From Verrucomicrobiota bacterium (GTDB taxonomy: Bacteria; Verrucomicrobiota; Verrucomicrobiia; Limisphaerales; JACQFS01), in contig JACQFS010000018.1 of NCBI GenBank assembly GCA_016199935.1, positions 18,785-82,784 on the forward strand: DNA of 64,000 nt, read 5' to 3'. The position numbers were made by a program, and so were the translations under genes. Below the pieces are notes generated by a model. That model had not been told where the DNA came from and searched no databases. It worked only from the letters and a program-made list of their open reading frames with translations. Position 1 is the stretch's first letter. The number at the start of each line of letters is the position of its first letter. Positions 12,888 through 61,555 of this stretch are shown piece by piece.

Positions 12888-13997
12888 ATGAAATTCACGG
12901 TCACAAAAGAGCAGTTGAGCCACGGCCTCGCCGCAGTGCAGAACGTCGTCAGCACGCGGACGACCCTGCCCATTCTCGCCAATGTTTTGCTCAAGGCCGA
13001 CGGCAACAAGCTCGAACTCACCGCGACCGATCTGGACGTGACCATCTCGTGCAGTGTCGAGGCGGCGGTGGCCAAGGGCGGCTCCACGACGTTGCCGGTG
13101 AAAAAAATCACGGCCATCGTGCGTGAACTTGGCGGCGGCGAGCTCGAATTCGAGACGGACGACAAGAACTTCACGGTCATCAAGGCCGGTGCTTCCTTTT
13201 ACAAGATCCACGGGCTGGCGTCGGAGGAGTTTCCGCCGTTGCCTAAGTTCAAGGAGAACAAAAAAATCACCCTCGCGCAGGAACGGCTGCGCACGATGTT
13301 GCGCAAGACCAGCTACGGCATGAGCGCCGATGAGACGCGCTACGTGCTCAACGGCCTGCTCTTTTCGCTCAAGGACCACAAGCTCACGATGGTCGCGACC
13401 GACGGCCGCCGCCTCGCGCTGGTGGACGAGGAAGTGGACATCCCGGCGGACAGCCAGGGCGACTTCATCGTGCCGAGCAAGGCGATCACCGAACTGGGCC
13501 GGCTGCTGCAGGAAGCAGGCAACGTGGAGATCAAGTTTGCCGAGAACCAGGCGGCATTTTCGTTGAGCAACGAAGGCGGCCAGTCCGTGCTCGTGATCAC
13601 CAAGCTGATCGAGGGCAACTATCCCAATTACCGCCAGGTCATCCCGGCCGAAAGCAAGGAGCGCATCCCGATGGTGCGCGAGGAATTGCTCGCCAGCCTG
13701 CGCCGCGCCGAGATCATGACGAGCGAGAAGAGCAATTCGGTGAAGCTCGCGTTCGGCAAGAACAACCTCGCCATCACCGCCAACACGCCGGAAGTCGGCG
13801 AGGCGCGCGAAAGCATCGCCATCAACTACAAGGGCAAGGAATTTGCCATCGCCTTCAATCCTGCCTACCTCATGGACCCGCTCAAGGCGCTGACCGAGGA
13901 CGAGGTGTTCTTTGAGCTGACCGACGAACTCAGCCCCGGCGTGCTCAAGATCAACGGGCCCTTCCTCTACGTCATCATGCCCATGCGCATGAGCTGA
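12888..13997 (+). CDS. dnaN: DNA polymerase III beta clamp
   Basis: TTLPILANVLL, ATDLD, DETRYVLNG, MVATDGRRL, IEGNYPNY, YVIMPMR. Confidence 0.98.
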   Translation: MKFTVTKEQLSHGLAAVQNVVSTRTTLPILANVLLKADGNKLELTATDLDVTISCSVEAAVAKGGSTTLPVKKITAIVRELGGGELEFETDDKNFTVIKAGASFYKIHGLASEEFPPLPKFKENKKITLAQERLRTMLRKTSYGMSADETRYVLNGLLFSLKDHKLTMVATDGRRLALVDEEVDIPADSQGDFIVPSKAITELGRLLQEAGNVEIKFAENQAAFSLSNEGGQSVLVITKLIEGNYPNYRQVIPAESKERIPMVREELLASLRRAEIMTSEKSNSVKLAFGKNNLAITANTPEVGEARESIAINYKGKEFAIAFNPAYLMDPLKALTEDEVFFELTDELSPGVLKINGPFLYVIMPMRMS

Positions 13998-14038: not shown

Positions 14039-15103
14039 TCATTTCTTCCGGCGCGCCCGCGCGTAGCCCGGCTTGATCACGTCGTAGATCAGCCGCAGCC
14101 GCTCATCAAAGTGAATGAACGCGCCCTTGATCGAGTTGAGCGTGATTTTTTCCAGGTCATCCACCGTGAGATCGAACTCCTCCACGGCAATCGCGAATTC
14201 CTTCGTCATGCTCGTGTCGCTCATCAGCCGGTCGTCGGTGTTGAGCGTCACGCGGAAGCCGCGGTCGAAATACAATTTGAACGGGTGCTCGCGCAGCGAC
14301 GGCACCGAGCCTGTGTGGACGTTGCTCGAGAGGCACATCTCCAGCGGAATACGGCGGTCGAGCACGTATTGCGCGAGCGTGCCGAGCTTCACGATCTTTC
14401 CACCCACGATGGTCATGTCGTCCGAGAGCCGCGTCGCATGGCCGAGCCGGTGCGCGCCGCAAAACTGGAGCGCCTGCCAGATGCTCGCCACGCCGAACGC
14501 CTCGCCCGCGTGCAGCGTGGAGAAAAAATTCGCGCGCTGGATCGCGGCGAAGGCCTCGGCGTGTTTCTTGGGCGGATGCCCCGCCTCCTCGCCCGCGAGA
14601 TCGAAGCCCACCACGCCGCGGTCGCGGAAATTGACGGCCAACTCAGCCGCTTCGAGCGAGTCCGTGCGGTCGCGCATCGCGCAAAGAATCAGCCCCCATT
14701 TCACGCCGCACTTTTCCTCGCCGCGCCGCAAACCATCCAGCACCGCGCCGACGATTGCCTCGTCCGTCAGCCCCTGCTCGCGATGGAAGCACGGCGCGAA
14801 GCGCGCCTCCGCATACACCACGCCGTCCGCATGCATGTCCTCGATGAACTCGAACGCCACGCGTTCGAGTGCTGCGCGCGTCTGCATCACGGCGATGGTG
14901 TGCTTGAAGCCTTCGAGGTAGAGCGGGAGCGAGCCGCGGTTGGCGCCGCGATGAAACCACGCGGCCAGTTCCTTGGGCCGGTCCGTCGGCAGACCTTCGT
15001 AGCCGGCCGCGCGCGCCAGTTCGATGATCGTCTTCGGGCGCAGGCCGCCATCGAGATGTTCGTGGAGCAGAACCTTGGGCAGGGCTTGGAGGTCGAGTGG
15101 CAT
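14039..15103 (-). CDS. add: Adenosine deaminase
   Basis: LHEHLDGG, GFDLAGEE, HAGE, RLGH, NTDD. Confidence 0.93.
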   Translation of the reverse strand: MPLDLQALPKVLLHEHLDGGLRPKTIIELARAAGYEGLPTDRPKELAAWFHRGANRGSLPLYLEGFKHTIAVMQTRAALERVAFEFIEDMHADGVVYAEARFAPCFHREQGLTDEAIVGAVLDGLRRGEEKCGVKWGLILCAMRDRTDSLEAAELAVNFRDRGVVGFDLAGEEAGHPPKKHAEAFAAIQRANFFSTLHAGEAFGVASIWQALQFCGAHRLGHATRLSDDMTIVGGKIVKLGTLAQYVLDRRIPLEMCLSSNVHTGSVPSLREHPFKLYFDRGFRVTLNTDDRLMSDTSMTKEFAIAVEEFDLTVDDLEKITLNSIKGAFIHFDERLRLIYDVIKPGYARARRKK

Positions 15104-52289: not shown

Positions 52290-52290
52290 T

Positions 52291-52372
52291 CAAGGCGCGG
52301 AGACATTTTTGTCGCCGGGTCGTCTGTCCAAAAACTTGAGTGACGAGGCGACAAGAGTGTCGCCGCTCCTTG
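52291..52372. repeat. REP-like palindrome
   Basis: IR 52291-52316 / 52347-52372, 22/26. Confidence 0.8.
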
Positions 52373-52404
52373 GTTGCGTCCGCGTCGCCATCTTTTCCGC
52401 CGCT

Positions 52405-53207
52405 GAAAACTTGTGCGCGTTTCCCTCGCAGTGCATAAATTTCGGAACGCATAGTTCACGCCCGACCTCCTGCCCGCCGACATCACCGGCACGCTCATCT
52501 ACAGTCCGCAGGACGGAAAATATCACGCCACCAAGGGCCCCATTTTCGCCAACCTCGTCCTCGCCGACGAAATCAACCGCGCGCCCGCCAAGGTGCAGTC
52601 CGCGTTGCTCGAAGCGATGCAGGAGCGCCAGGTCACGCTCGGTGGCGAGACGATGCTGCTGCCCTCGCCATTCCTCGTGCTCGCGACGGAGAACCCGATT
52701 GACCAGGAAGGCACGTATCCGTTGCCCGAGGCGCAGGTGGACCGGTTCATGTTCAAAATCCTGATTGATTACCCGAGCGAGGCCGAGGAGCGGAAAATTT
52801 TGGACACGATGGCGTTCACATCGGCTTCGACCAAAGTGCAGCCGGTCATCGCGCTGGAGGAGATTTTCAAAACGCGCGAGCTCGTGGACCGCATCCACGT
52901 GGACGACAAGATCCGCGACTACATCGTGCAGGTGGTGTTCGCGACGCGGAACCCGGCGAAATACAAGCTGGAGCTGAAGCACCTCATCCAGTTCGGCGCC
53001 TCGCCGCGCGCGACCATCAACCTCACGCTCGCGGCCAAGGCGTGGGCGTTGCTCGAAGGCCGCGCCTACGTGACGCCGCAGGACATCAAGAGCATCGGCC
53101 CCGACGTGCTCCGCCACCGCATCATCCTCAGCTACGAGGCCGAGGCCGAGGGCGTGACGAGCGAGGACATCATTGCGAAGGTGTTCAACACGGTGCCGGT
53201 GCCGTGA
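52405..53207 (+). pseudogene. moxR: MoxR AAA+ ATPase, 5'-truncated as assembled
   Basis: In-frame FTPDLLPADITG...ADEINRAPAKVQSALLEAMQE preceded by TAG; no Walker A or N-terminus upstream. Confidence 0.8.
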
Positions 53208-53212
53208 GTGAC

Positions 53213-53289
53213 GAGTAAGGAGTAATGCGTAATCGGAATTCAATTGCGGTCGCGCCCTCACTCTTACGGATTACTCCTTACTCCTTACG
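53213..53289. repeat. Heptamer-based intergenic hairpin
   Basis: GAGTAAG GAGTAAT GCGTAAT ... TTACGGA TTACTCC TTACTCC TTACG. Confidence 0.8.
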
Positions 53290-53295
53290 CCGCGC

Positions 53296-54270
53296 ATGAC
53301 CATCAAGGAAATCCTCGCCACCGTCCGCCGCGTCGAGATTCGCACCTTTCGTATGGCGAACGACATGATGGTCGGCGCCTACCTCAGCCGCTTCAAGGGG
53401 CGCGGGATGGACTTCGAGGAGCTGCGCGAATACATCCCCGGCGACGACGTGCGCGACATTGATTGGAACGTCACCAACCGCATGGGCCGGCCCTTCGTGA
53501 AGCGCCACCGGGAGGAGCGCGAACTGGGCATCGTGCTCGCCGTGGACGTCTCGGCCTCGGGCGCGTTCGGCTCGGTGCGCCGGAGCAAACGCGAGTTTGC
53601 CGCCGAGGTCGCCGCCACGCTCGCCTTCTCCGCCGCGCGCAGCAGCGACAAGGTGGGTCTCGCGCTGTTCACCGACCGCGTCGAACTGTTCCTGCCACCG
53701 CGCAAGGGACGCCGGCACATTCTGCGCGTCATCCGCGAGATGCTTTTCTTCGAGCCGCGGTCGCGCGCCACCGAGGTCGGCGCCGCGCTGCGCTTCCTCA
53801 ACGACGCGGTGAAGCGCCGCAGCGTTGTCTTTCTGCTCACGGATTTTGTGCACAGCGGAGTGGAAGTGGAACAGGCGCCCTCGCCTGCAGGTCCTGCGGG
53901 CGAGGGCGCCCGCACCACTAAGATGGCCGGGGGCGGCCGTCCCACTACTCGCGCCCGTGATCTCGTTCAGGAAATCGGACTCACCAACACTCGCCACGAT
54001 CTCGTCTGCCTGCACCTGCACGACCCGCGCGAGGGCGAACTCCCCAACGCCGGCCTGCTGACCATCGAGGACGCCGAGACGGGCGAGCTGCTCGAAGTCG
54101 ATTCGGGCCGTGCCTCCGTGCGCGCCGCGTATGCCGAGACGAACGCGAGTCGCATCGCCGCGCTCGATCGTTCGTTGCAACAGGCGCACGTGGACACCCT
54201 GCGCCTGCGCACCGACGAGCCGTTTGCGCAAACCCTCCAGCGCTTCTTTGAATTGCGCCGTCGCCGGTGA
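53296..54270 (+). CDS. DUF58 family protein
   Basis: GRGMDFEELREYIPGDDVRDIDWNVT, VDVSAS, LTDF. Confidence 0.93.
   Translation: MTIKEILATVRRVEIRTFRMANDMMVGAYLSRFKGRGMDFEELREYIPGDDVRDIDWNVTNRMGRPFVKRHREERELGIVLAVDVSASGAFGSVRRSKREFAAEVAATLAFSAARSSDKVGLALFTDRVELFLPPRKGRRHILRVIREMLFFEPRSRATEVGAALRFLNDAVKRRSVVFLLTDFVHSGVEVEQAPSPAGPAGEGARTTKMAGGGRPTTRARDLVQEIGLTNTRHDLVCLHLHDPREGELPNAGLLTIEDAETGELLEVDSGRASVRAAYAETNASRIAALDRSLQQAHVDTLRLRTDEPFAQTLQRFFELRRRR
53865..53919. repeat. REP-like palindrome in frame inside DUF58
   Basis: IR 53865-53891 / 53893-53919, 23/27; followed by a half-REP-like tract to ~53948. Confidence 0.75.
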
Positions 54271-54920
54271 TGAACGCGGAACGCCCATCCGAAATGGTAG
54301 CCGCCGAGGTAGCAGCCGACGTGAGGAGGCTCACTTTTCTCGGCGGAAAATTTGGAGCCTCCTTACGTCGGCTGCTACCGGTGATCGGACTGGCCGCCGC
54401 CTTTGGCGTGCGTGCGGCGGAGCAAATTCCCGAGCTGCGCCCGCCGGTCGTGGAAATCCCGCCGGACTTTTGGGAACTGCACGGCACGCAAGTCAGCATC
54501 GGCTCCACGCTCGGTGTCGTGGCCGTCGTCGCGCTCGTGCTTTTGTTGCTGCGGAAGAAGCCGCCGGTCGTCACTCCGCCCGCCGTCGCTGCGCGTCGGG
54601 CGCTCGAAGCGTTGCGTGGCCGCCCCGAGACGCTCGCGCTCGCGGGCGAGGTCTCGCAAATCATCCGACACTACGTGCTCGCGAAGCTCGGCCGCGCCGG
54701 CGAGGAGCCGACGACGGAAGAACTGGTGCGGGCCCTTTCAGCCGACGCACGATTCAGTCCGGCGAAGGTGCAGTCGCTCGCCGCGTTCCTCCGCGACTGT
54801 GACGTGCAGAAGTTCGCGCCCGCCACCGCGCCGCAGCCGGATGTGGTCACGCGCGCGTTGGCGCTCGTGGATCAGCTCGAGCAAGCCGCCCAACCGCCGC
54901 TGCTGCCGCCAGCCGCATGA
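54267..54920 (+). CDS. Bat-operon membrane protein (DUF4381-like)
   Basis: Single TM, AARRALEAL, DVQKFA; start overlaps the DUF58 stop. Confidence 0.75.
   Translation: MMNAERPSEMVAAEVAADVRRLTFLGGKFGASLRRLLPVIGLAAAFGVRAAEQIPELRPPVVEIPPDFWELHGTQVSIGSTLGVVAVVALVLLLLRKKPPVVTPPAVAARRALEALRGRPETLALAGEVSQIIRHYVLAKLGRAGEEPTTEELVRALSADARFSPAKVQSLAAFLRDCDVQKFAPATAPQPDVVTRALALVDQLEQAAQPPLLPPAA
54308..54379. repeat. REP-like palindrome in the N-terminal coding region
   Basis: GGTAGCAGCCGACGTGAGGAGGCTC / GAGCCTCCTTACGTCGGCTGCTACC, 24/25. Confidence 0.9.
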
Positions 54921-55957
54921 GCTCCCACTTCGAGTTCCAATATCCGTGGGTGCTCGCGCTGCTGGCGTTGTTGCCGGTGTATGCGTTCCTGTGCGGGCGC
55001 GCGGGGCGTTTCTCCGCGCTGCGTTTTCCAAGTGCCGACCTCGCACGGGCCGCGGGCGCGGTGGCGCGCTCGGCGGCGGGGCGGCTCCTCCTTTTTCTGC
55101 GCCTGCTCGCGGTCGGGTTCGGCATCGTCGCGCTCGCGGGGCCGCGCGTCGCGCACGATCGCACCGAGACGCAGGCCAGCGGCGTGGACATCATGCTCGT
55201 TTTCGATCTTTCGTGGAGTATGGTCGCGCTCGACATGAGCGGACCAAACGAGCGCGTCACCCGTTTCGATCTCGCGCAGGAGGTCATCACCGACTTCGTG
55301 AAGCGCCGCGGCAGCGACCGGCTCGGGCTCGTGGTTTTTTCCGGCGTGCCTTATCTCGCCAGCCCGCTGACGTTGAATCACGACTGGCTTCAGCAAAACA
55401 TCGCGCGCCTCCACATCGGCATCATCCGCGAACTCGGCACGGCCATCGGCGACGCCACCGCCTCGGCCACGCGGCACCTGAAGAAACTCAAGGACAGCAA
55501 GAGCCGCATCATCATCCTGCTCACCGACGGCGACAACAACCGCGGCGACATTGATCCCTTGCCCGCCGCGGAACTCGCCGCGGCGCTGGGCGCGAAAATT
55601 TACACCATCGGCATCGGCAAGGAGGAGGCGTGCGTGATGCCGGCGTTCGATCCCGCGACCGGCAAGCTGCTGCTCGGCCCCAACGGCGAGATCATCCCGG
55701 CCGTGACGCTCCAGCCCGCCAACTACAAAGTGCTCGACCAGATGAGCCGGCTCACGCGCGGCAAGAGCTACCGCGCCGCGAGCCGCCGCGAACTCGCCGG
55801 CATCTACGACGAGATTGACCGGCTGGAGAAGACCGAGGTGAAGCTGCGCCGCTACACGACCTACGCGCCGCTGTTTCAATGGTGGCTGGTGACGGCGTTT
55901 GTGCTCTTCGTTTTGGAAATGATTTTGGTGAACACGCGATACCGGAGGGCGCCGTGA
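54917..55957 (+). CDS. batA: vWA domain protein, BatA-like
   Basis: DLSWS MIDAS-like motif, DRLGLVVF, GTAIGDA, LLTDGDNN. Confidence 0.85.
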   Translation: MSSHFEFQYPWVLALLALLPVYAFLCGRAGRFSALRFPSADLARAAGAVARSAAGRLLLFLRLLAVGFGIVALAGPRVAHDRTETQASGVDIMLVFDLSWSMVALDMSGPNERVTRFDLAQEVITDFVKRRGSDRLGLVVFSGVPYLASPLTLNHDWLQQNIARLHIGIIRELGTAIGDATASATRHLKKLKDSKSRIIILLTDGDNNRGDIDPLPAAELAAALGAKIYTIGIGKEEACVMPAFDPATGKLLLGPNGEIIPAVTLQPANYKVLDQMSRLTRGKSYRAASRRELAGIYDEIDRLEKTEVKLRRYTTYAPLFQWWLVTAFVLFVLEMILVNTRYRRAP

Positions 55958-55984
55958 CACAATAAATCGGCATCTGAATTCGTT

Positions 55985-56263
55985 ATGATAATTTTCGTTT
56001 GGATTCTGCAAACCAAGTGGCCAGCGATCGCAGCTTTTCTTGTGACTTTTGCCCTTCGGACATGGTTGAAATGGCCTCAAGGCCGAGTGGCTGCTTTGAT
56101 GTTCGTTTGCTCGATGGCCGTGTTGTTTGTTTACAGTGTGCGCACCGAGCCATCCAGTTTTTGGGGGCCTCCGGGCTGGTTGTTTGGAGGAATCGCCGCA
56201 TCGACAATGATGATCACGACGGCGGTTGCACTGTTGCTGACGATCAAGACGAAAGCTTCCTGA
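55985..56263 (+). CDS. Small AT-richer multi-TM hypothetical protein
   Basis: 92 aa, three hydrophobic segments, between batA and batB. Confidence 0.55.
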   Translation: MIIFVWILQTKWPAIAAFLVTFALRTWLKWPQGRVAALMFVCSMAVLFVYSVRTEPSSFWGPPGWLFGGIAASTMMITTAVALLLTIKTKAS

Positions 56264-56269
56264 TAGCCG

Positions 56270-57307
56270 ATGAACTTTGCCAACCCCCATTTCGCCGAGC
56301 CCGCGTGGCTCTGGCTCGTTTTGCTGGGATTGGTGCTGCTCGTGTTGCTGCACCGCTACGCGGCGCACGCGCGGCAGAAGCAGCTCGCGAAATTCGCGCT
56401 GCCCGGTCTGCTCGCGAGCCTGCTGAGTTCGCACAGCCCGTTGCGCCGCGCGGTGAAGCACTTGCTGCTCGTGCTGGCCGTCGTGCTCATGGGCCTCGCG
56501 CTCGCGCGTCCGCAATGGGGCGAACAGGCCGAGGTCACGCAGGCGCTCGGCGAGGACGTGATCTTCATCCTCGATTGCTCGCGCAGCATGATGGCCGAGG
56601 ACGTGCGCCCGACGCGGCTCGCGCGCGCGCAACTCGCCATTCAGGACTTCGTCCAGCGTCACGGCCGCGGGCGCGTGGGGCTCGTCGCGTTCGCGGGCCA
56701 GGCGTTTCTGCAATGCCCGCTCACCTTCGACTACGACGCGTTCCGCGATTCAATGCTGGCCGTGGACGCGGACTCGATTCCCGTCCCCGGCACGGACATC
56801 GCGCGCGCGCTCGACGAATCTTTTCTCGCGATGGAAAAAGATCACCGCCGCAAATTCATGGTGCTCGTCACCGACGGCGAGGATTTGGAAAAGGGCGGCG
56901 TGGCGAAGGCGCAGTCGCTCGCGGAAAAGGGCGTGCGCCTCTACACCGTCGGCGTCGGCACGGCGGGCGGCAGCCTGATCCAGGTGCCGGATGGGCGCGG
57001 CGGCGTGCAGCCGTTGCGCGACGAACGCGGGCAGGTGGTGGAGAGCCGGCTCGACGAGGTGACGCTCCGCGCGCTGGCCGCGGCGACGGGCGGCGATTAC
57101 CAACCGCTCGGCGCGCTCGGCGAGGGCATGGGTGAAGTCCGCCGCGCGCTCGCCAACGCCACGGACGCGCCCGGCGCGTCGCTCGCGCACAAGTTCGGGG
57201 TGGATCGCTTCCACGTGTTCGTCGCGGCGGTGCTCGCGCTGCTGGTGGCGGAAAGTTTGATTGGCACGCGGCGGCGCGTGGTCGAAGGTGAGGCGGTGAA
57301 GCCATGA
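56270..57307 (+). CDS. batB: vWA domain protein, BatB-like
   Basis: LDCSRSM, VGLVAFAG, GTDIARAL, LVTDGED. Confidence 0.85.
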   Translation: MNFANPHFAEPAWLWLVLLGLVLLVLLHRYAAHARQKQLAKFALPGLLASLLSSHSPLRRAVKHLLLVLAVVLMGLALARPQWGEQAEVTQALGEDVIFILDCSRSMMAEDVRPTRLARAQLAIQDFVQRHGRGRVGLVAFAGQAFLQCPLTFDYDAFRDSMLAVDADSIPVPGTDIARALDESFLAMEKDHRRKFMVLVTDGEDLEKGGVAKAQSLAEKGVRLYTVGVGTAGGSLIQVPDGRGGVQPLRDERGQVVESRLDEVTLRALAAATGGDYQPLGALGEGMGEVRRALANATDAPGASLAHKFGVDRFHVFVAAVLALLVAESLIGTRRRVVEGEAVKP

Positions 57308-58332
57308 AATCCGAAATCCGAAATCCGAAATCCGAAACAAATCCGAAGCCCGAATTGCAAATGTCGGAAACGGGGCCGCGGAATTTTGGACCTTCGCACT
57401 TTCGCCTTTGGATTTGTTTCGGATTTCGGATTTCGAGGTTCGGGTTTTTCCTCGCTCTGTTGCTGCCGCTGCTTTCCGCCTTCGCCAACGAACCCGCGCC
57501 TAAATCCGCCCGCGAACTTTTCAACGACGGCACCGCCCGGCTGCGCGACGGCAAGTTGCGCGAGGCCGAGGGCGCGTTGCAGGCTGCCGTCAACAGCCAG
57601 CGCGAGGAACTCCAGCCGCCCGCGCTCTACAACCTCGGCCACGTCCGCTTCCAGCAGGGCGCGGCGGTGCTCAAGGAAAGCGCCAGTCCCGGCGCGACGC
57701 GCGCGCGCGGCGAGGGCGCGACGGCCATCGGCGATGGTGCGCTGCGCGCCGCGGACGCCGCGCTCGCCGGCAATGAGTTCGAGGCGATTCTCTCGGCCTA
57801 CCTTCAGGGTCGCGGCGCGCGGCGCGAGTTGAAGGGCGCGACCGAGGCGGTGAAGAAGGCAATGGATGCTTACGGCGCGGTGCTCAACCGCTGGCGGCGC
57901 GCGTCGGGTGATTTCAAAAGCGCCGAGGAGCTTCAACCGAAAAATGCCGACGCGAAGTTCAACGCGAACGTGGTGGACCAGAACATCGCGCAGCTCGTGG
58001 ACCAGGTAAACCAGATGCAGCAGCAGCAGCAGCAGATGGGCGGTCAGCGCGACGAGTTGAAAAAGAAAATGCAGGAGCTCAAGGGCAAGATGCCCGGCCA
58101 GCAGCAGCCGCCCGGCATGGGCGACGACGAGGACGACGACGAGGACGATGGAAAGAAGCAGCCGCAGCAAGGCGACAAGGAAGGCCCGAACCGCGACGGC
58201 AAGGAGCAGCAGATTTCGCCCGAGGACGCGATGCGCCTGCTGGAGACGATGCGGCTCGACGGCAACCGCAAGCTGCCCCTGACCGAAGGCAAGGCGGGCG
58301 ACCCGAAGTCGAAGACGGGGAAGACGTGGTGA
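57304..58332 (+). CDS. TPR protein with Gln-rich/acidic tail, BatC-like
   Basis: ALYNLGH, DAKFN, polyQ and acidic tail, ends KTW. Confidence 0.78.
   Translation: MKSEIRNPKSETNPKPELQMSETGPRNFGPSHFRLWICFGFRISRFGFFLALLLPLLSAFANEPAPKSARELFNDGTARLRDGKLREAEGALQAAVNSQREELQPPALYNLGHVRFQQGAAVLKESASPGATRARGEGATAIGDGALRAADAALAGNEFEAILSAYLQGRGARRELKGATEAVKKAMDAYGAVLNRWRRASGDFKSAEELQPKNADAKFNANVVDQNIAQLVDQVNQMQQQQQQMGGQRDELKKKMQELKGKMPGQQQPPGMGDDEDDDEDDGKKQPQQGDKEGPNRDGKEQQISPEDAMRLLETMRLDGNRKLPLTEGKAGDPKSKTGKTW
57306..57434. repeat. Heptamer (GAAATCC)n inverted element in the N-terminal coding region
   Basis: GAAATCC x4; 57320-57344 is the perfect reverse complement of 57410-57434 (25 bp). Confidence 0.9.
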
Positions 58333-60497
58333 GGGGGATGAAGCGACATGACCAATCGCAAGTCCCGCAGGGACGTTTGAAAATAGCCCGGCACTTCAGT
58401 GCCGGGATCGCGAACGAAGAAGCGCCGAGTCCCGAAGGGACGGATGAAAACCGATTCGATGGATTTGTTTCAGCCGTCCCTTCGGGACTTGCTTCCTTCT
58501 TTCGCTCCAACCCGGCACTAAAGTGCCGGGCTATATTCCGCGGTCCCTTCGGGACCAAGCCACGGTTCAGCAACCGTCGCGGCGTTCTCCTCTTAGCCGT
58601 TCTCCTCGCTTCGCTTGGCTCCGCGTTTGCGCAGAATCCACCGCCGCCTTCGCCCAACCAAATCCAGGTCCAAGGCGGCTCGGTCACGATCCAGGGCGGC
58701 ACCGTCACGTTGCAGGGCGGGCCGATGATCATCCGCGGCGGGGTCATTCAGTCCGGCACCAACGCGGCGCCCATTGATCCGCTCATCAACCTCATGATGT
58801 CGCAGCCGCAGGTCGAAACGAATCAGGTCTTCGTCGTCGCCGAGTTCGATCCGCCCGCGGTGCCGGCCGGCGCGCGCGCGACCTACCGGCTCATCGTCAC
58901 GGCGCTCAGCGAAACGATTGTGCTGCCGGAAAAATTGCCCGCGCCCGCCGGGCTGCGCATCGAGGAGGGTGGCAAGGCGCAGGCGTTGCAAAATCTCGGC
59001 TCCATCATTCAGGCGCGCTCGACCTACAACTTCCGCGCGTATCCCGCCGCGCCCGGCGGCGTGGTGATGCCCGCGTTCGCGATCAAGGTCGCGGGCAAAT
59101 CCGTGACCGTGCCCGAGGCGCGGCTCACGGTGCTCGCGCCGAGCGCGGTGCTCGTGCCCGCGCCGGCGCGGCTCTCGCTCGAAATTCCGACGAACGACAT
59201 TTACATCGGCCAGGCTGTGGCCGCGCGGCTCCTCATTTCCGATCCGGGCGACAACTCCGTGCTCGCGATGACGCAGGCGCACGTGGTCGGCGACGGGTTG
59301 CTCGCGGAGGGCGGCTTCGCGCGCATGATGCGCCAGGCCGTGATGCGCGACGGCCGGCCGCAACTTTCCATCATGAGCGAAGTGCTCGCCACGCCGATGC
59401 GCGAGGGAAAGCTCACCGTCTTCGGCCAGGCGAGCGTCATCCTCAACCGCGGCACCGACGTGCGCTACCCGACGATGCCCGGCTACTATCCGCTGATGGA
59501 CACCGAGCCGGTGACGATGCACGTTCGCCGCGTGCCGGACGAGGGCGCGCGCGCGGGGTTCACCGGCGCGATCGGAAATTTCCAGCTCGATCCGCCGCAG
59601 CTCTCGCTCAAGGAAGTGCGCGCCGGAGATCCCGTGCTGATGCAGGTCGTGGTGCGCGGCGAGGGAAACTTCGGACGCTTCACGCCGCCCCGGCCGCCGG
59701 CCGATCCGGACTGGCAGATTTTTCCGCCGAGCACCGAGGCCAACTCCGGCAATCAAATGCAGCACCAGGGCTACGCGGCGTTTGTTTATACGCTCATCCC
59801 GTTGAGCGACCGCGTGCGCGCGACGCCGGCGATGGCGTTCAGCGCGTTTGATCCGGAGAAAAAAAAGCACGTGGACCTGACCATCCCACCGGTCGCGTTG
59901 AAGGTGACGCCCGCGCCCGGCGGCGTGCGCGCACCGCGCGCCGCGGACGCCGCGGACGCGGTGGACGCGGACGCGAATGAACCGACGCTCGCGCTGGCCG
60001 GGCTGATGGAGAATCGCGGTGCGACCGTCGCGAGCCTCGTGCCGCTGCAACAGCGCGGCGGCTTTCTCGCGGCGCAACTGGTGCCCGCGGCGCTGCTCGG
60101 CGGCCTGTGGTGGCGGGATCGGCGTCGGCGCTTTCACGCGGCGCATCCCGAGTTTTTGCTGAAACGCCGCGCGCGTCGCGCGCTCGCGCGGCAGCGGCGT
60201 CGCGCACGCCGTGCGGTGGCGACGAGTGATGCGGGCGCATTCGTCACCGCGGCGGTGAACGCGTTGCGCGCCGCCGCCGCGCCGCACACCGCCGCGAATC
60301 CCGACGCGCTCGTCTGCCGCGACGTGCTGCGCGAACTGCCCGCCGGCTCGAACGGTGCGGACTCCGGACTGGTCCGCAAAATTTTCAGCGCCGCCGACGC
60401 CGCGAACTTCACCCAGCGAATCGAAAACGAGTCCGCCCTGCTGACGCTCGGCGCGGACTTCGAGCGCGTGGCGGGAAAACTGGAGGGACGCCTGTGA
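58326..60497 (+). CDS. batD: BatD-like protein
   Basis: Signal peptide after a long N-terminal extension, Ig-like segments, FTGAIGNF, C-terminal TM. Confidence 0.8.
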   Translation: MVRGMKRHDQSQVPQGRLKIARHFSAGIANEEAPSPEGTDENRFDGFVSAVPSGLASFFRSNPALKCRAIFRGPFGTKPRFSNRRGVLLLAVLLASLGSAFAQNPPPPSPNQIQVQGGSVTIQGGTVTLQGGPMIIRGGVIQSGTNAAPIDPLINLMMSQPQVETNQVFVVAEFDPPAVPAGARATYRLIVTALSETIVLPEKLPAPAGLRIEEGGKAQALQNLGSIIQARSTYNFRAYPAAPGGVVMPAFAIKVAGKSVTVPEARLTVLAPSAVLVPAPARLSLEIPTNDIYIGQAVAARLLISDPGDNSVLAMTQAHVVGDGLLAEGGFARMMRQAVMRDGRPQLSIMSEVLATPMREGKLTVFGQASVILNRGTDVRYPTMPGYYPLMDTEPVTMHVRRVPDEGARAGFTGAIGNFQLDPPQLSLKEVRAGDPVLMQVVVRGEGNFGRFTPPRPPADPDWQIFPPSTEANSGNQMQHQGYAAFVYTLIPLSDRVRATPAMAFSAFDPEKKKHVDLTIPPVALKVTPAPGGVRAPRAADAADAVDADANEPTLALAGLMENRGATVASLVPLQQRGGFLAAQLVPAALLGGLWWRDRRRRFHAAHPEFLLKRRARRALARQRRRARRAVATSDAGAFVTAAVNALRAAAAPHTAANPDALVCRDVLRELPAGSNGADSGLVRKIFSAADAANFTQRIENESALLTLGADFERVAGKLEGRL
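58361..58555. repeat. 195-bp composite palindrome in the N-terminal coding region
   Basis: Inner perfect 16-bp IR 58428-58443 / 58474-58489; IR 58379-58406 / 58511-58538 (26/28); GTCCC-N-GGGAC ends. Confidence 0.9.
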
Positions 60498-61447
60498 AGA
60501 TGTTCCGTTTCGATCTCGCCTCCTCGTTGTCCGCCGGCTTTGGTCTTGTCTCACCTCTCACCCCGGCCCTCTCCCCGTTGAGGGGAGAGGGAGAAGCGGC
60601 CGGCAAATCGGTGGGCACGGATTTGTTCGAGGACCACCGTGCGCGTGGCGCGCTTCCCTCTCCCCTCAACGGGGAGAGGGCCAGGGAGCGGGGTGAGGCT
60701 GGACTGTGGTATAGGAAGGGCATTTTCGCGGGTGGCCTTTTGTTGTTCCTCTTTCTCGGTGCGCAACTGCGCGTCGTTGCCGACGATTCCTTTCGCGAAG
60801 GGGCGGCCGCCTACGCTGCGGCGGACTACGCGCGGGCGGCGGGGAAATTTCGCGAGGCGGCGAGCAACGCGCCGAGCTCCGCCACGTTTCACAACCTCGG
60901 CAATGCCGAGTGGAAGAACGGCCGCACCGGCGCGGCGGTGCTCGCGTGGGAGCGCGCGCAATGGCTCGACCCGTTCACCACTAACGCGACCGCGAGCCTC
61001 CGCTTCGCGCGGCACACGGCGCAGCTTGAATCGCCGCGGCTCGCGTGGCACGAGGGCGCCTCGACGTGGCTGCCGGTCAACGCGTGGCCGCTGCTCGCGA
61101 GCCTGAGCGCGTGGCTCGCGGTCGCCGCGCTGATGCTCCCGCCGATTTTCCGGGCGCGCCGGCGTGACTGGCATCAGGCGCTGGCGGCGGCGAGCTTCGC
61201 GGTGTTCCTCGCCACGCTGCCGGCGCTCGCGGGCGTCCACGCGCGCGCAAAGTTCGGCGTGGTGCTCGCCACGAAGACGCCGCTGCGGCTCACGCCCACG
61301 CGCGAGGGGCAGGTCATCACCTCGCTGCCCGCCGGCGAGACGGCGCGCCTCGAGCGCGAGCGTGGTGGCTACGTGTTCATCCGCGCCGGCAACGACGCGG
61401 CGGGCTGGGTGGAACGGGAGCGGTTCGGGATGATCTGCGGCCGGTAG
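60494..61447 (+). CDS. batE: TPR + TM + SH3 protein, BatE-like
   Basis: FHNLGNAEWK, two TM helices, AGWV SH3-like end. Confidence 0.8.
   Translation: MKMFRFDLASSLSAGFGLVSPLTPALSPLRGEGEAAGKSVGTDLFEDHRARGALPSPLNGERARERGEAGLWYRKGIFAGGLLLFLFLGAQLRVVADDSFREGAAAYAAADYARAAGKFREAASNAPSSATFHNLGNAEWKNGRTGAAVLAWERAQWLDPFTTNATASLRFARHTAQLESPRLAWHEGASTWLPVNAWPLLASLSAWLAVAALMLPPIFRARRRDWHQALAAASFAVFLATLPALAGVHARAKFGVVLATKTPLRLTPTREGQVITSLPAGETARLERERGGYVFIRAGNDAAGWVERERFGMICGR
60551..60696. repeat. REP-like palindrome in the N-terminal coding region
   Basis: 42-nt arms; GGCCCTCTCCCCGTTGAGGGGAGAGGGA (28 bp) is perfectly inverted. Confidence 0.9.
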
Positions 61448-61526
61448 GGCGCGGTGTCCTCACCGCGCCGCGGGCGATCCGAGCGCGACAGGTTTTCGCG
61501 GCGCGCTGAGGACAGTGCGCCCTACC
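61443..61526. repeat. REP-like palindrome overlapping the batE stop
   Basis: IR 61443-61472 / 61497-61526, 27/30; right arm repeated directly at 62028-62061. Confidence 0.88.
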
Positions 61527-61555
61527 GCAAATGGTTTGTGCGAACCGAAAGCCGA

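Follow-up and report, generated by a model that had tools for sequence, protein, structure and literature searches.

A Bat-type operon carrying hairpin repeats

The DNA analysed here is a stretch of 64,000 nt, referred to as the window, from a Verrucomicrobiota assembly of the order Limisphaerales (GCA_016199935.1, contig JACQFS010000018.1, positions 18,785 to 82,784). It contains a Bat-type operon, recognized from open reading frames (ORFs) and Pfam matches within 52.4-61.5 kb, in which four genes carry different hairpin-forming repeats, named E1 to E4, close to their starts. The extent to which these repeats might be translated as leaders of exported proteins is the subject of this analysis. 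The source is a metagenome-assembled genome from groundwater (genome code G000; 5.03 Mb, 64% GC), and the window lies on its contig C256.

Genes are arranged in the order MoxR-DUF58-DUF4381-BatA-BatB-BatC-BatD-BatE. A 5'-truncated moxR gene extends to 53207 and is followed on the forward strand by a DUF58 gene (53296-54270), a DUF4381-like gene designated gA (54267-54920), batA (54917-55957), batB (56270-57307), a batC-like gene (57304-58332), batD (58326-60497) and batE (60494-61447). This order and matches to Pfam DUF58, BatA/VWA (twice), BatD (PF13584) and SH3 identify the operon as Bat. The gA gene is known as an ORF, the orthologue of which is annotated as PF14316 (DUF4381) in the relative L026 (GCA_044224905.1), and synteny with L026, including PF14316 and bpMoxR, backs the assignment. 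In L026 the same gene order is found in a compact form, with genes that overlap or abut and with purQ/purS downstream, as in the window. All eight ORFs downstream of moxR are intact and received high coding scores from a dicodon gene caller. Hydrophobic cores begin at codon 48 of the batC-like gene (FFLALLLPLLSAFA), codon 87 of batD (VLLLAVLLASLGSAFA) and codon 77 of batE (IFAGGLLLFLFLGA).

Four hairpin families at cistron starts

The start of each of the four genes overlaps or abuts the preceding stop (TGATG for gA, ATGA for batC, GTGA for batD and GTGA for batE), and the frame remains open from there through an inverted repeat to the hydrophobic core. The earlier note on this DNA had described four mutually unrelated palindromes at these places, behind overlapping starts and within open frames, and had read the peptides SLRRLL, KCRAIFR and ERARERGE from them; all of this was borne out, with coordinates that were off by a few bases only. 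The arms of E1-E4 measure 25-64 nt and the predicted RNA folding energies (dG) range from -57 to -130 kcal/mol. All four elements are dispersed in the same genome, with 177, 103, 8 and 34 high-scoring segment pairs, respectively, in blastn-short searches, and by sequence they constitute four distinct families. Single-linkage clustering of hairpin loci chained most families, E1, E2 and E4 included, into one component, an outcome taken to be an artefact and not used for family definition.

E1 (54308-54379, + strand; dG -56.8 kcal/mol) is a 72-nt hairpin with 25-nt arms that are 96% complementary and a 22-nt loop. It is GTAG-headed, is built like a doublet of repetitive extragenic palindromes (REPs), reads GGTAGCAGCC...GGCTGCTACC and has 55 full copies in the genome. 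A GTAG or GTRG at the element end is found in E1 and is absent from E2, E3 and E4, and the arrangement of two inverted units around a spacer is that of a REPIN. Two of the three frames of E1 are stop-free, and the in-frame translation is VAADVRRL...ASLRRLLP. Candidate starts for gA are ATG 54270, which overlaps the DUF58 stop, and GTG 54381, directly 3' of E1, the alternative that had already been noted; the odds that E1 is translated in gA are roughly even. None of the four homologues of Y1 transposases (PF01797) that were checked in the genome is flanked by E1. One of them, an IS200/RAYT-like (for REP-associated tyrosine transposase) gene at C171:20441-21060, lies between the inverted pair CCTCTCATTAACACCC / GGGTGTTAATGAGAGG, of which there are ~10 genome copies; this unit looks like a REPtron of a family other than E1-E4.

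E2 (57307-57447, + strand; dG -73.2 kcal/mol) has 64-nt arms that are 80% complementary, consist of GAAATCC heptamer repeats and contain perfect cores of 18-19 nt (57306-57330 and 57417-57435). It is stop-free in all three frames. The batC start, ATG 57304, overlaps the batB stop, and further in-frame starts occur in the loop region of E2 (TTG 57355 and ATG 57361).

E3 (58358/58362-58555, + strand; dG -130.0 kcal/mol) is a composite palindrome of ~198 nt with 45-nt outer arms and nested inner hairpins, stop-free in the gene frame only. Candidate starts for batD are GTG 58326 or 58329, at the GTGA overlap, and ATG 58338, in a conserved ATGAAG six bases past the batC stop; TTG 58377 lies in frame within the element. 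Each terminal arm of E3 is a match to Rfam RF01687 (Acido-Lenti-1), the two being inverted, at 58361-58406 on the - strand and 58511-58556 on the + strand, with scores of 55.6 and 38.8 bits against a gathering threshold of 37 for this 46-nt model. The genome contains 23 matches above threshold, mostly in convergent pairs ~177-205 nt apart (e.g. C82:5390-5592), and the E3 family comprises ~10 composite copies of 177-205 nt with inverted terminal units of ~46 nt, the terminal-repeat arrangement of a MITE (miniature inverted-repeat transposable element). No consistent direct repeats, as expected of a target-site duplication, flank ten E3-family copies. Because the matches lie in convergent pairs, their distribution suggests that the RF01687 motif may represent the inverted repeats that terminate a MITE-like element, as opposed to a free-standing small RNA (sRNA). 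One E3-type pair (C82:5391-5591) lies in frame within a 1321-aa protein.

E4 (60543-60704, + strand; dG -125.4 kcal/mol) is a 162-nt hairpin of the 'LSPLRGEGE / PLNGERARERGE' type, with 50-nt arms that are 86% complementary, and is likewise stop-free in the gene frame only. The batE start, GTG 60494, overlaps the batD stop and has GGAGG upstream, and in-frame starts are present inside E4 (TTG 60578, GTG 60611 and TTG 60623).

Three further hairpins occur in the operon. A heptamer-armed hairpin of the GTAAGGA/GTAATCC family (31 loci) fills the moxR-DUF58 spacer (53213-53288); E5, a near-perfect palindrome of 55 nt (53865-53919, + strand; dG -45.9 kcal/mol), lies in frame inside the DUF58 gene; and a GTAG-headed hairpin from a family of 23 loci (61442-61527; dG -65.5 kcal/mol) closes the operon on its 3' side, overlapping the stop of batE. 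Seven hairpin elements in 8.3 kb represent a several-fold enrichment relative to the genome, in which 925 loci were counted (~1 per 5.4 kb). Logan contigs from four groundwater runs (~6x coverage) span E3 fully and break at E1, E2 and E4; among these contigs, no population variant with an empty site was seen.

Start codons and the open frames

All candidate starts were listed for BatC, BatD and BatE, and a canonical start between element and core was found for none of the three. The earlier note was correct on the absence of ATG and GTG from these intervals and left the starts inside the elements unmentioned. BatD is the clearest case, as there is no ATG, GTG, TTG, CTG or ATN codon between E3 and the core; with its canonical starts, 69-86 residues ahead of the core would be translated, ~59-66 of them encoded by the element. 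If the gene is functional, translation through E3 would be close to unavoidable. In BatC, starts later than E2 occur only inside the hydrophobic core. Orthologues retain an N-terminal hydrophobic core, so that a start upstream of it is needed. Provided that these conserved signal peptides are produced, each element must be at least partly translated, to the extent of the 3' arm in BatC and BatE and of nearly the whole element in BatD.

The probability that all four elements would by chance have both a stop-free frame and a coupled start in that frame was estimated as ~1e-3. An empirical estimate was obtained from the genome, where the ORF is open from an upstream start through a 5'-end element in 84 of 406 instances (0.21), which gives ~0.002 for four out of four.

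Leader elements in related operons

Useful relatives came from a protein database and an order-wide scan; a scan of metagenome contigs for close BatD relatives returned nothing, and species-representative genomes of the same family yielded distant paralogues only. Most of the 34 BatD loci recovered across the order have a hydrophobic core just before a conserved DPL(I/L)xLMxSQP motif. The L026 operon has one hairpin, in the moxR-DUF58 spacer, and none at the gA, batC, batD and batE junctions, and its leaders are short and classical (BatC, MKSTFRQMTCWGALVAAHVIASTTVALA; BatD, MISSRAIFLILFLLVSLVRVSAQ; BatE, VKRRTFSFFRLIATLAAAIALMGTARA). Short signal peptides are also found in the element-free BatE of G005 and L024. 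Alignment of orthologous N-termini, which the earlier note had proposed, indicated that the hydrophobic cores are ancestral and that in-frame copies of the elements were kept with indels of 12 nt and 9 nt.

The 12-nt indel concerns E1. In the metagenomic relatives L024 and L028 alike, E1 occupies the gA site of the window in identical phase and again measures 72 nt, and from the ATG to a conserved IPxLRPP motif the window, L024 and L028 differ by this single indel. The arms of E1 are identical at 50/50 nt between the window and L024 (L024 886-957), while the loop is 68% identical and the identity of batA and batB at 4-fold degenerate sites is only 65-71% between the same two genomes. This comparison implies that selection or concerted evolution would have kept the arms unchanged at the nucleotide level, with the loop drifting at a fixed length. 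The 9-nt indel concerns E2, an orthologous copy of which is present in L028 at the batC start in the same frame; the alignment is ungapped for ~170 nt before the gap and the ORF is open, and the palindrome of the L028 copy has partly decayed (z -2.5 vs -9.1 in the window).

At the batC-batD junction, different families have struck independently in four relatives, and in all of them the frame is open. L024 has an element with GTTCAAA-heptamer arms right after the conserved ATGAAG, L028 one of the MTNHE/HSSLIIH type, G005 one with AAAATG/CATTTT arms, the 3' arm of which encodes the core IFIFHFSFFIFHC, and L045 an E2-type element. BatD of L024 and L028 is 60% and 57% identical to that of the window, respectively, and BatA is 82-87% identical. 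Together these observations support the view that the elements may have been maintained in frame over long periods in the relatives.

Further observations on these junctions can be recorded here. The motif GTGGTGAG(G/T)GGGATGAAG is found 3' of batC in the window and in L024, a sign that the coupled starts are conserved. The element-free batC of L026 starts with ATGAAATCC, preceded by CCGAAATG, and holds one GAAATCC unit (window 57304-57312 vs L026 6095-6103); microhomology-guided insertion or local seeding of E2 at the batC start is possible. An origin of E2 by local slippage alone was rejected because of the dispersed family in the genome and an E2-family copy at another junction, between batA and batB, in G005. 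The batB and batC genes of G005 (L022 5540-5800) share a single frame that no stop interrupts (…IGTRRRALTKVVSAGLALAFAAFG…), which reflects either a gene fusion or a sequencing error. Between batA and batB, which overlap in L026, the window has a 312-bp insert (55958-56269) of 51% GC vs 64%, in which a hydrophobic ORF of 92 aa (55985-56263) scores negatively for coding and has no match in Pfam; a hairpin-forming repeat takes its place at this junction in L024, L028 and G005, that of G005 being the E2-family copy. The L024 DUF58 gene also holds an unrelated GEGE-type element (L024 430-491), and the DUF58 gene may be a second permissive site that is recurrently struck.

Hairpin repeats and exported proteins across the genome

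A genome-wide census was conducted on 4114 genes called with the dicodon caller (88% coding). Among the 925 hairpin loci, 412 lie at gene 5' junctions, 323 are otherwise intergenic and 174 are inside genes. At least 78 of the interior copies, from families with ≥3 members, are in frame in well-scoring genes, including a ligA copy in the window, and translation of these repeat families thus appears clearly to be tolerated.

In 109 element-gene pairs a hydrophobic core lies just 3' of the element: 59 have a start downstream of the element, and in 43 the nearest canonical start is inside it (37) or upstream of it (6). The remaining 7 pairs, with a stop before the start, were all discarded as false cores in which the repeat arms themselves are hydrophobic (e.g. 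HSSFVI). The ORF is open through the element from an upstream start in 46 of 175 genes with an N-terminal core and in 38 of 215 without one, a marginal effect in a crude comparison (odds ratio, OR, 1.66; p=0.047), and elements upstream of core-bearing genes are barely enriched (OR 1.24, p=0.056).

The secreted proteins encoded at C158:3947, C101:14309, C153:29335 and C128:12934 have no possible canonical start other than one within or ahead of an element. The first is a sulfatase with an E1 leader, the second a gamma-glutamyltranspeptidase in which a member of the E4 family precedes the signal peptide (with the start in the loop) and the third a Kelch-like protein with a leader element. In an amidohydrolase (C53:3959) the core includes the arm FAICHSSFVIL. 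On contig C128 the sole signal-peptide-like segment of two proteins, both on the - strand, is a whole E1 or E1-family copy with a hydrophobic loop: a haem-binding dehydrogenase of the type found in the Planctomycetes-Verrucomicrobia-Chlamydiae (PVC) group (12934-13003; SSRRKEALTFLAFIVSLLTSAATSSLA followed by AEP) and an SBBP-repeat protein (14328-14400; SSRRQKALTFFLIGFVSLLTSAST). The dehydrogenase has a second E1 copy in its interior.

The phase in which E1 is read differs with its context. The 3' arm of 21 interior copies reads SLLTSAAT (17) or EPPHVGSY (4) and never ASLRRLLP, while all 3 leader copies that are open in frame read ASLRRLLP and abut the hydrophobic core (Fisher p 0.004-0.007 vs interior copies). 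This link between phase and context is indirect evidence that the leader copies may be seen by selection as protein.

Translation of the leaders and competing explanations

That the elements of BatC, BatD and BatE are translated, at least in part, as the earlier note had proposed, is the most economical reading of the conserved cores and the absence of a later canonical start, and is judged rather likely. In the scenario that best fits the data, four selfish hairpin repeats, namely the GTAG REP-doublet E1, the heptamer-armed E2, the MITE-like E3 and E4, a GC-rich 'GEGE' palindrome, would each have landed a few codons past a cistron start in a tightly packed Bat operon. Because the starts overlap the previous stops in this operon, the usual resting place of a REP, just past the upstream stop, would coincide with the n-region of the signal peptide that comes next. 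The downstream gene would stay expressed only where an insertion leaves the frame open, and such insertions would be the ones observed. Ribosomes from the ancestral coupled start, or possibly from a loop start in BatC and BatE, would read through the element and produce leaders of ~47 (BatC), 82-86 (BatD) and 74-76 (BatE) residues ahead of the core. Such extensions could be tolerated because they lie ahead of the hydrophobic core, and would be removed with the signal peptide or retained on the cytoplasmic side. Passive settling and survival is the best reading of this arrangement.

A stronger proposal, that mobile palindromes are a regular source of export-signal sequence in PVC bacteria and act as portable n-region or signal-peptide modules, is suggested by the ASLRRLLP phase of E1 at the core in three unrelated genes, the signal segments on C128 that consist of a whole E1 copy and the invariant E1 arms. 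This proposal is tentative and is considered a good deal less probable than translation of the Bat leaders itself.

Several observations weigh against translation of the elements, and most of them would be expected if the repeats were untranslated intercistronic spacers, with genes that start after the element or at its end, weakly or at non-canonical codons, and with frames that are open by accident in GC-rich, stop-poor sequence. Frame selection was not detected at gene 5' ends, where elements are stop-free at 44% in the gene frame vs 46% and 41% in the other two, and this lack of frame bias indicates that most elements at 5' junctions are ordinary untranslated spacers. In the operon, GTG 54381 would give gA an N-terminus collinear with that of the element-free L026 orthologue, and CTG 60704, a near-cognate codon that lies where E4 ends and is preceded by the Shine-Dalgarno-like GGTGAGG, would give BatE a textbook signal peptide. 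A gene caller placed the BatD start at 58725 (P0001, 590 aa), a canonical start is found after or at the end of the element in L033, L035 and L054, and hairpins of -57 to -130 kcal/mol beside start codons could block initiation. Many or most N-terminal REPs were judged extragenic in a published survey (Di Nocera et al., 2013; PMC3733652). It must be added that both the gene calls and the detector of hydrophobic cores were made in house and are crude, and that the sequencing runs found for the sample are of the DNA metagenome only. The spacer explanation is nevertheless difficult to apply to BatD, in which neither a canonical nor a near-cognate start separates E3 from the conserved core and the called start, 133 residues short, loses the signal peptide of the orthologues, or to BatC, in which later starts fall only inside the core. 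Nor does it account for four open frames out of four at a chance of ~1e-3, or for leader indels among orthologues in multiples of three. Starts before and after the element are both expected if insertions are random around a start that lies 0-10 nt from the upstream stop. As a general account of these four leaders, the spacer explanation is regarded as unlikely.

These results also limit the suggestion in the earlier note that signal peptides are a safe harbour for REPs. Other secreted proteins of the genome share this arrangement, and this part stands; the at least 78 interior copies, the marginal contrast between secreted and other proteins (OR 1.66) and the lack of frame bias speak against a preference of the kind envisaged. 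Translational coupling is no prerequisite, since further leader cases are not all in coupled operons.

Retention of the hairpins for a function, whether by sequestration of starts, which would leave each cistron dependent on coupling with the upstream ribosome, or by stabilization of mRNA so that subunit ratios are tuned, is also improbable, at about the level of the spacer explanation. In malEFG, REPs have a stabilizing effect on the mRNA upstream of them, and Liang, Rudd and Deutscher reportedly found in 2015 that translation is lowered by REPs close to stop codons. In the Bat operon, very stable hairpins begin 2-49 nt past coupled starts, elements recur at Bat junctions across the order and the arms of E1 are completely conserved relative to 4-fold sites; the last of these could, however, result from concerted evolution of a mobile family. 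Furthermore, families, positions and strengths of the hairpins differ among lineages. A regulatory role is not required because an element-free L026 operon exists and the E2 palindrome decays in L028. An effect of the hairpins on coupling or mRNA stability is plausible as a putative and secondary consequence.

The state of moxR raises the possibility of a decaying operon, which would also count against translation: the truncated gene would signal relaxed selection, with repeats piling up at junctions and open frames that are transient. The moxR reading frame starts abruptly at 52453 (FTPDLLPADI...), right after a TAG, and lacks residues 1-73 including Walker A, which were not found anywhere else in the assembly. 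A palindrome of the GGCGACAAGAGTGTCGCC type lies upstream of the truncation (window 52290-52600), and one Logan contig runs past 52452 into unlike sequence, within a stretch that many members of the community have in conserved form; a real deletion and an assembly chimera are equally likely. Although seven hairpins and the 312-bp lower-GC insert in ~8.3 kb, together with a second Bat operon in the genome on C57, would suit decay, this explanation is very improbable given that none of the eight ORFs downstream is disrupted and all of them score high for coding, that moxR residues 74-329 are 90% identical to L026, so that the truncation is recent or an assembly chimera, and that elements occupy the same junctions in L024 and L028, where the genes are intact and BatA is conserved, which speaks for long-term function in the presence of the elements.

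If the leaders are translated, the operon would show with unusual clarity how, in nature, compact genomes come to retain selfish repeats: where overlapping cistrons leave no intergenic space, the leaders of exported proteins would serve as a resting place and N-termini would be written by mobile DNA. There are practical consequences as well. Gene callers misplace such starts, as in BatD, and cores at a distance of 50-90 residues from the start will escape signal-peptide predictors. Acido-Lenti-1, an Rfam 'sRNA' motif, may have to be viewed as a mobile-element terminal repeat. Finally, the operon offers a test bed for the effect of very stable hairpins at cistron starts on translational coupling.

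Comparison with known repeat systems

Four known systems are relevant to these elements. Rickettsia palindromic elements (RPEs) are described as in-frame palindromes within protein genes (Ogata et al., 2000; PMC10969869), and RPE-1 at protein N-termini is reported to be expressed in vivo (cited in PMC3733652). Like RPEs, the elements described here are dispersed, palindromic and in frame, with at least 78 interior copies, and add peptide segments. They are likened to RPEs by description, as they belong to another phylum and no sequence relationship is expected, and they differ from them in that four families occupy adjacent leaders, ahead of signal-peptide cores, and not surface loops.

REPINs are said to be moved by RAYT transposases, a view reportedly set out by Bertels and Rainey in 2011. 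E1 resembles GTAG REPs and REPINs in its GTAG start, its two inverted 25-nt units and its short spacer, and four Y1 transposase homologues are present in the genome; the differences are that no Y1 gene is flanked by E1, that E2-E4 have no GTAG and that BatD has no alternative start. The verrucomicrobium Opitutus terrae was found to be richest in intragenic GTAG REPs, one of which lies in a DNA ligase gene, and REPs at ORF N-termini were also recorded, with the same reservation about start sites (Di Nocera et al., 2013; PMC3733652). With its in-frame interior copies, the genome analysed here behaves in the RPE-like manner of O. terrae. The statement in the earlier note that no description of the pattern was known was therefore too strong.

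RU-2 in a Yersinia signal peptide is a published precedent. There, too, a small mobile repeat has been joined in frame to an exported protein's N-terminus and makes up a portion of the signal peptide predicted for it; that example is one prediction, for a small hypothetical protein, whereas conserved operon genes, several families and comparative retention are involved here. Acido-Lenti-1 was introduced as a candidate sRNA and is listed as such in Rfam (RF01687; Weinberg et al., 2010; PMC2864571). E3 agrees with it in that the scores of its two terminal arms exceed the gathering threshold, but in the present genome the matches mostly form convergent pairs and some copies are in frame in genes.

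In the literature searched, there was no report of a coupled operon with four successive leaders that each hold a different repeat family, of orthologous leader elements retained over deep divergence, of a link between phase and context as in E1 or of Acido-Lenti-1 pairing as terminal repeats, and the term 'signal peptide' does not occur in a 2024 review of MITEs. In-frame palindromic repeats and N-terminal REPs are known already, and the Bat operon is a striking example of this known habit.

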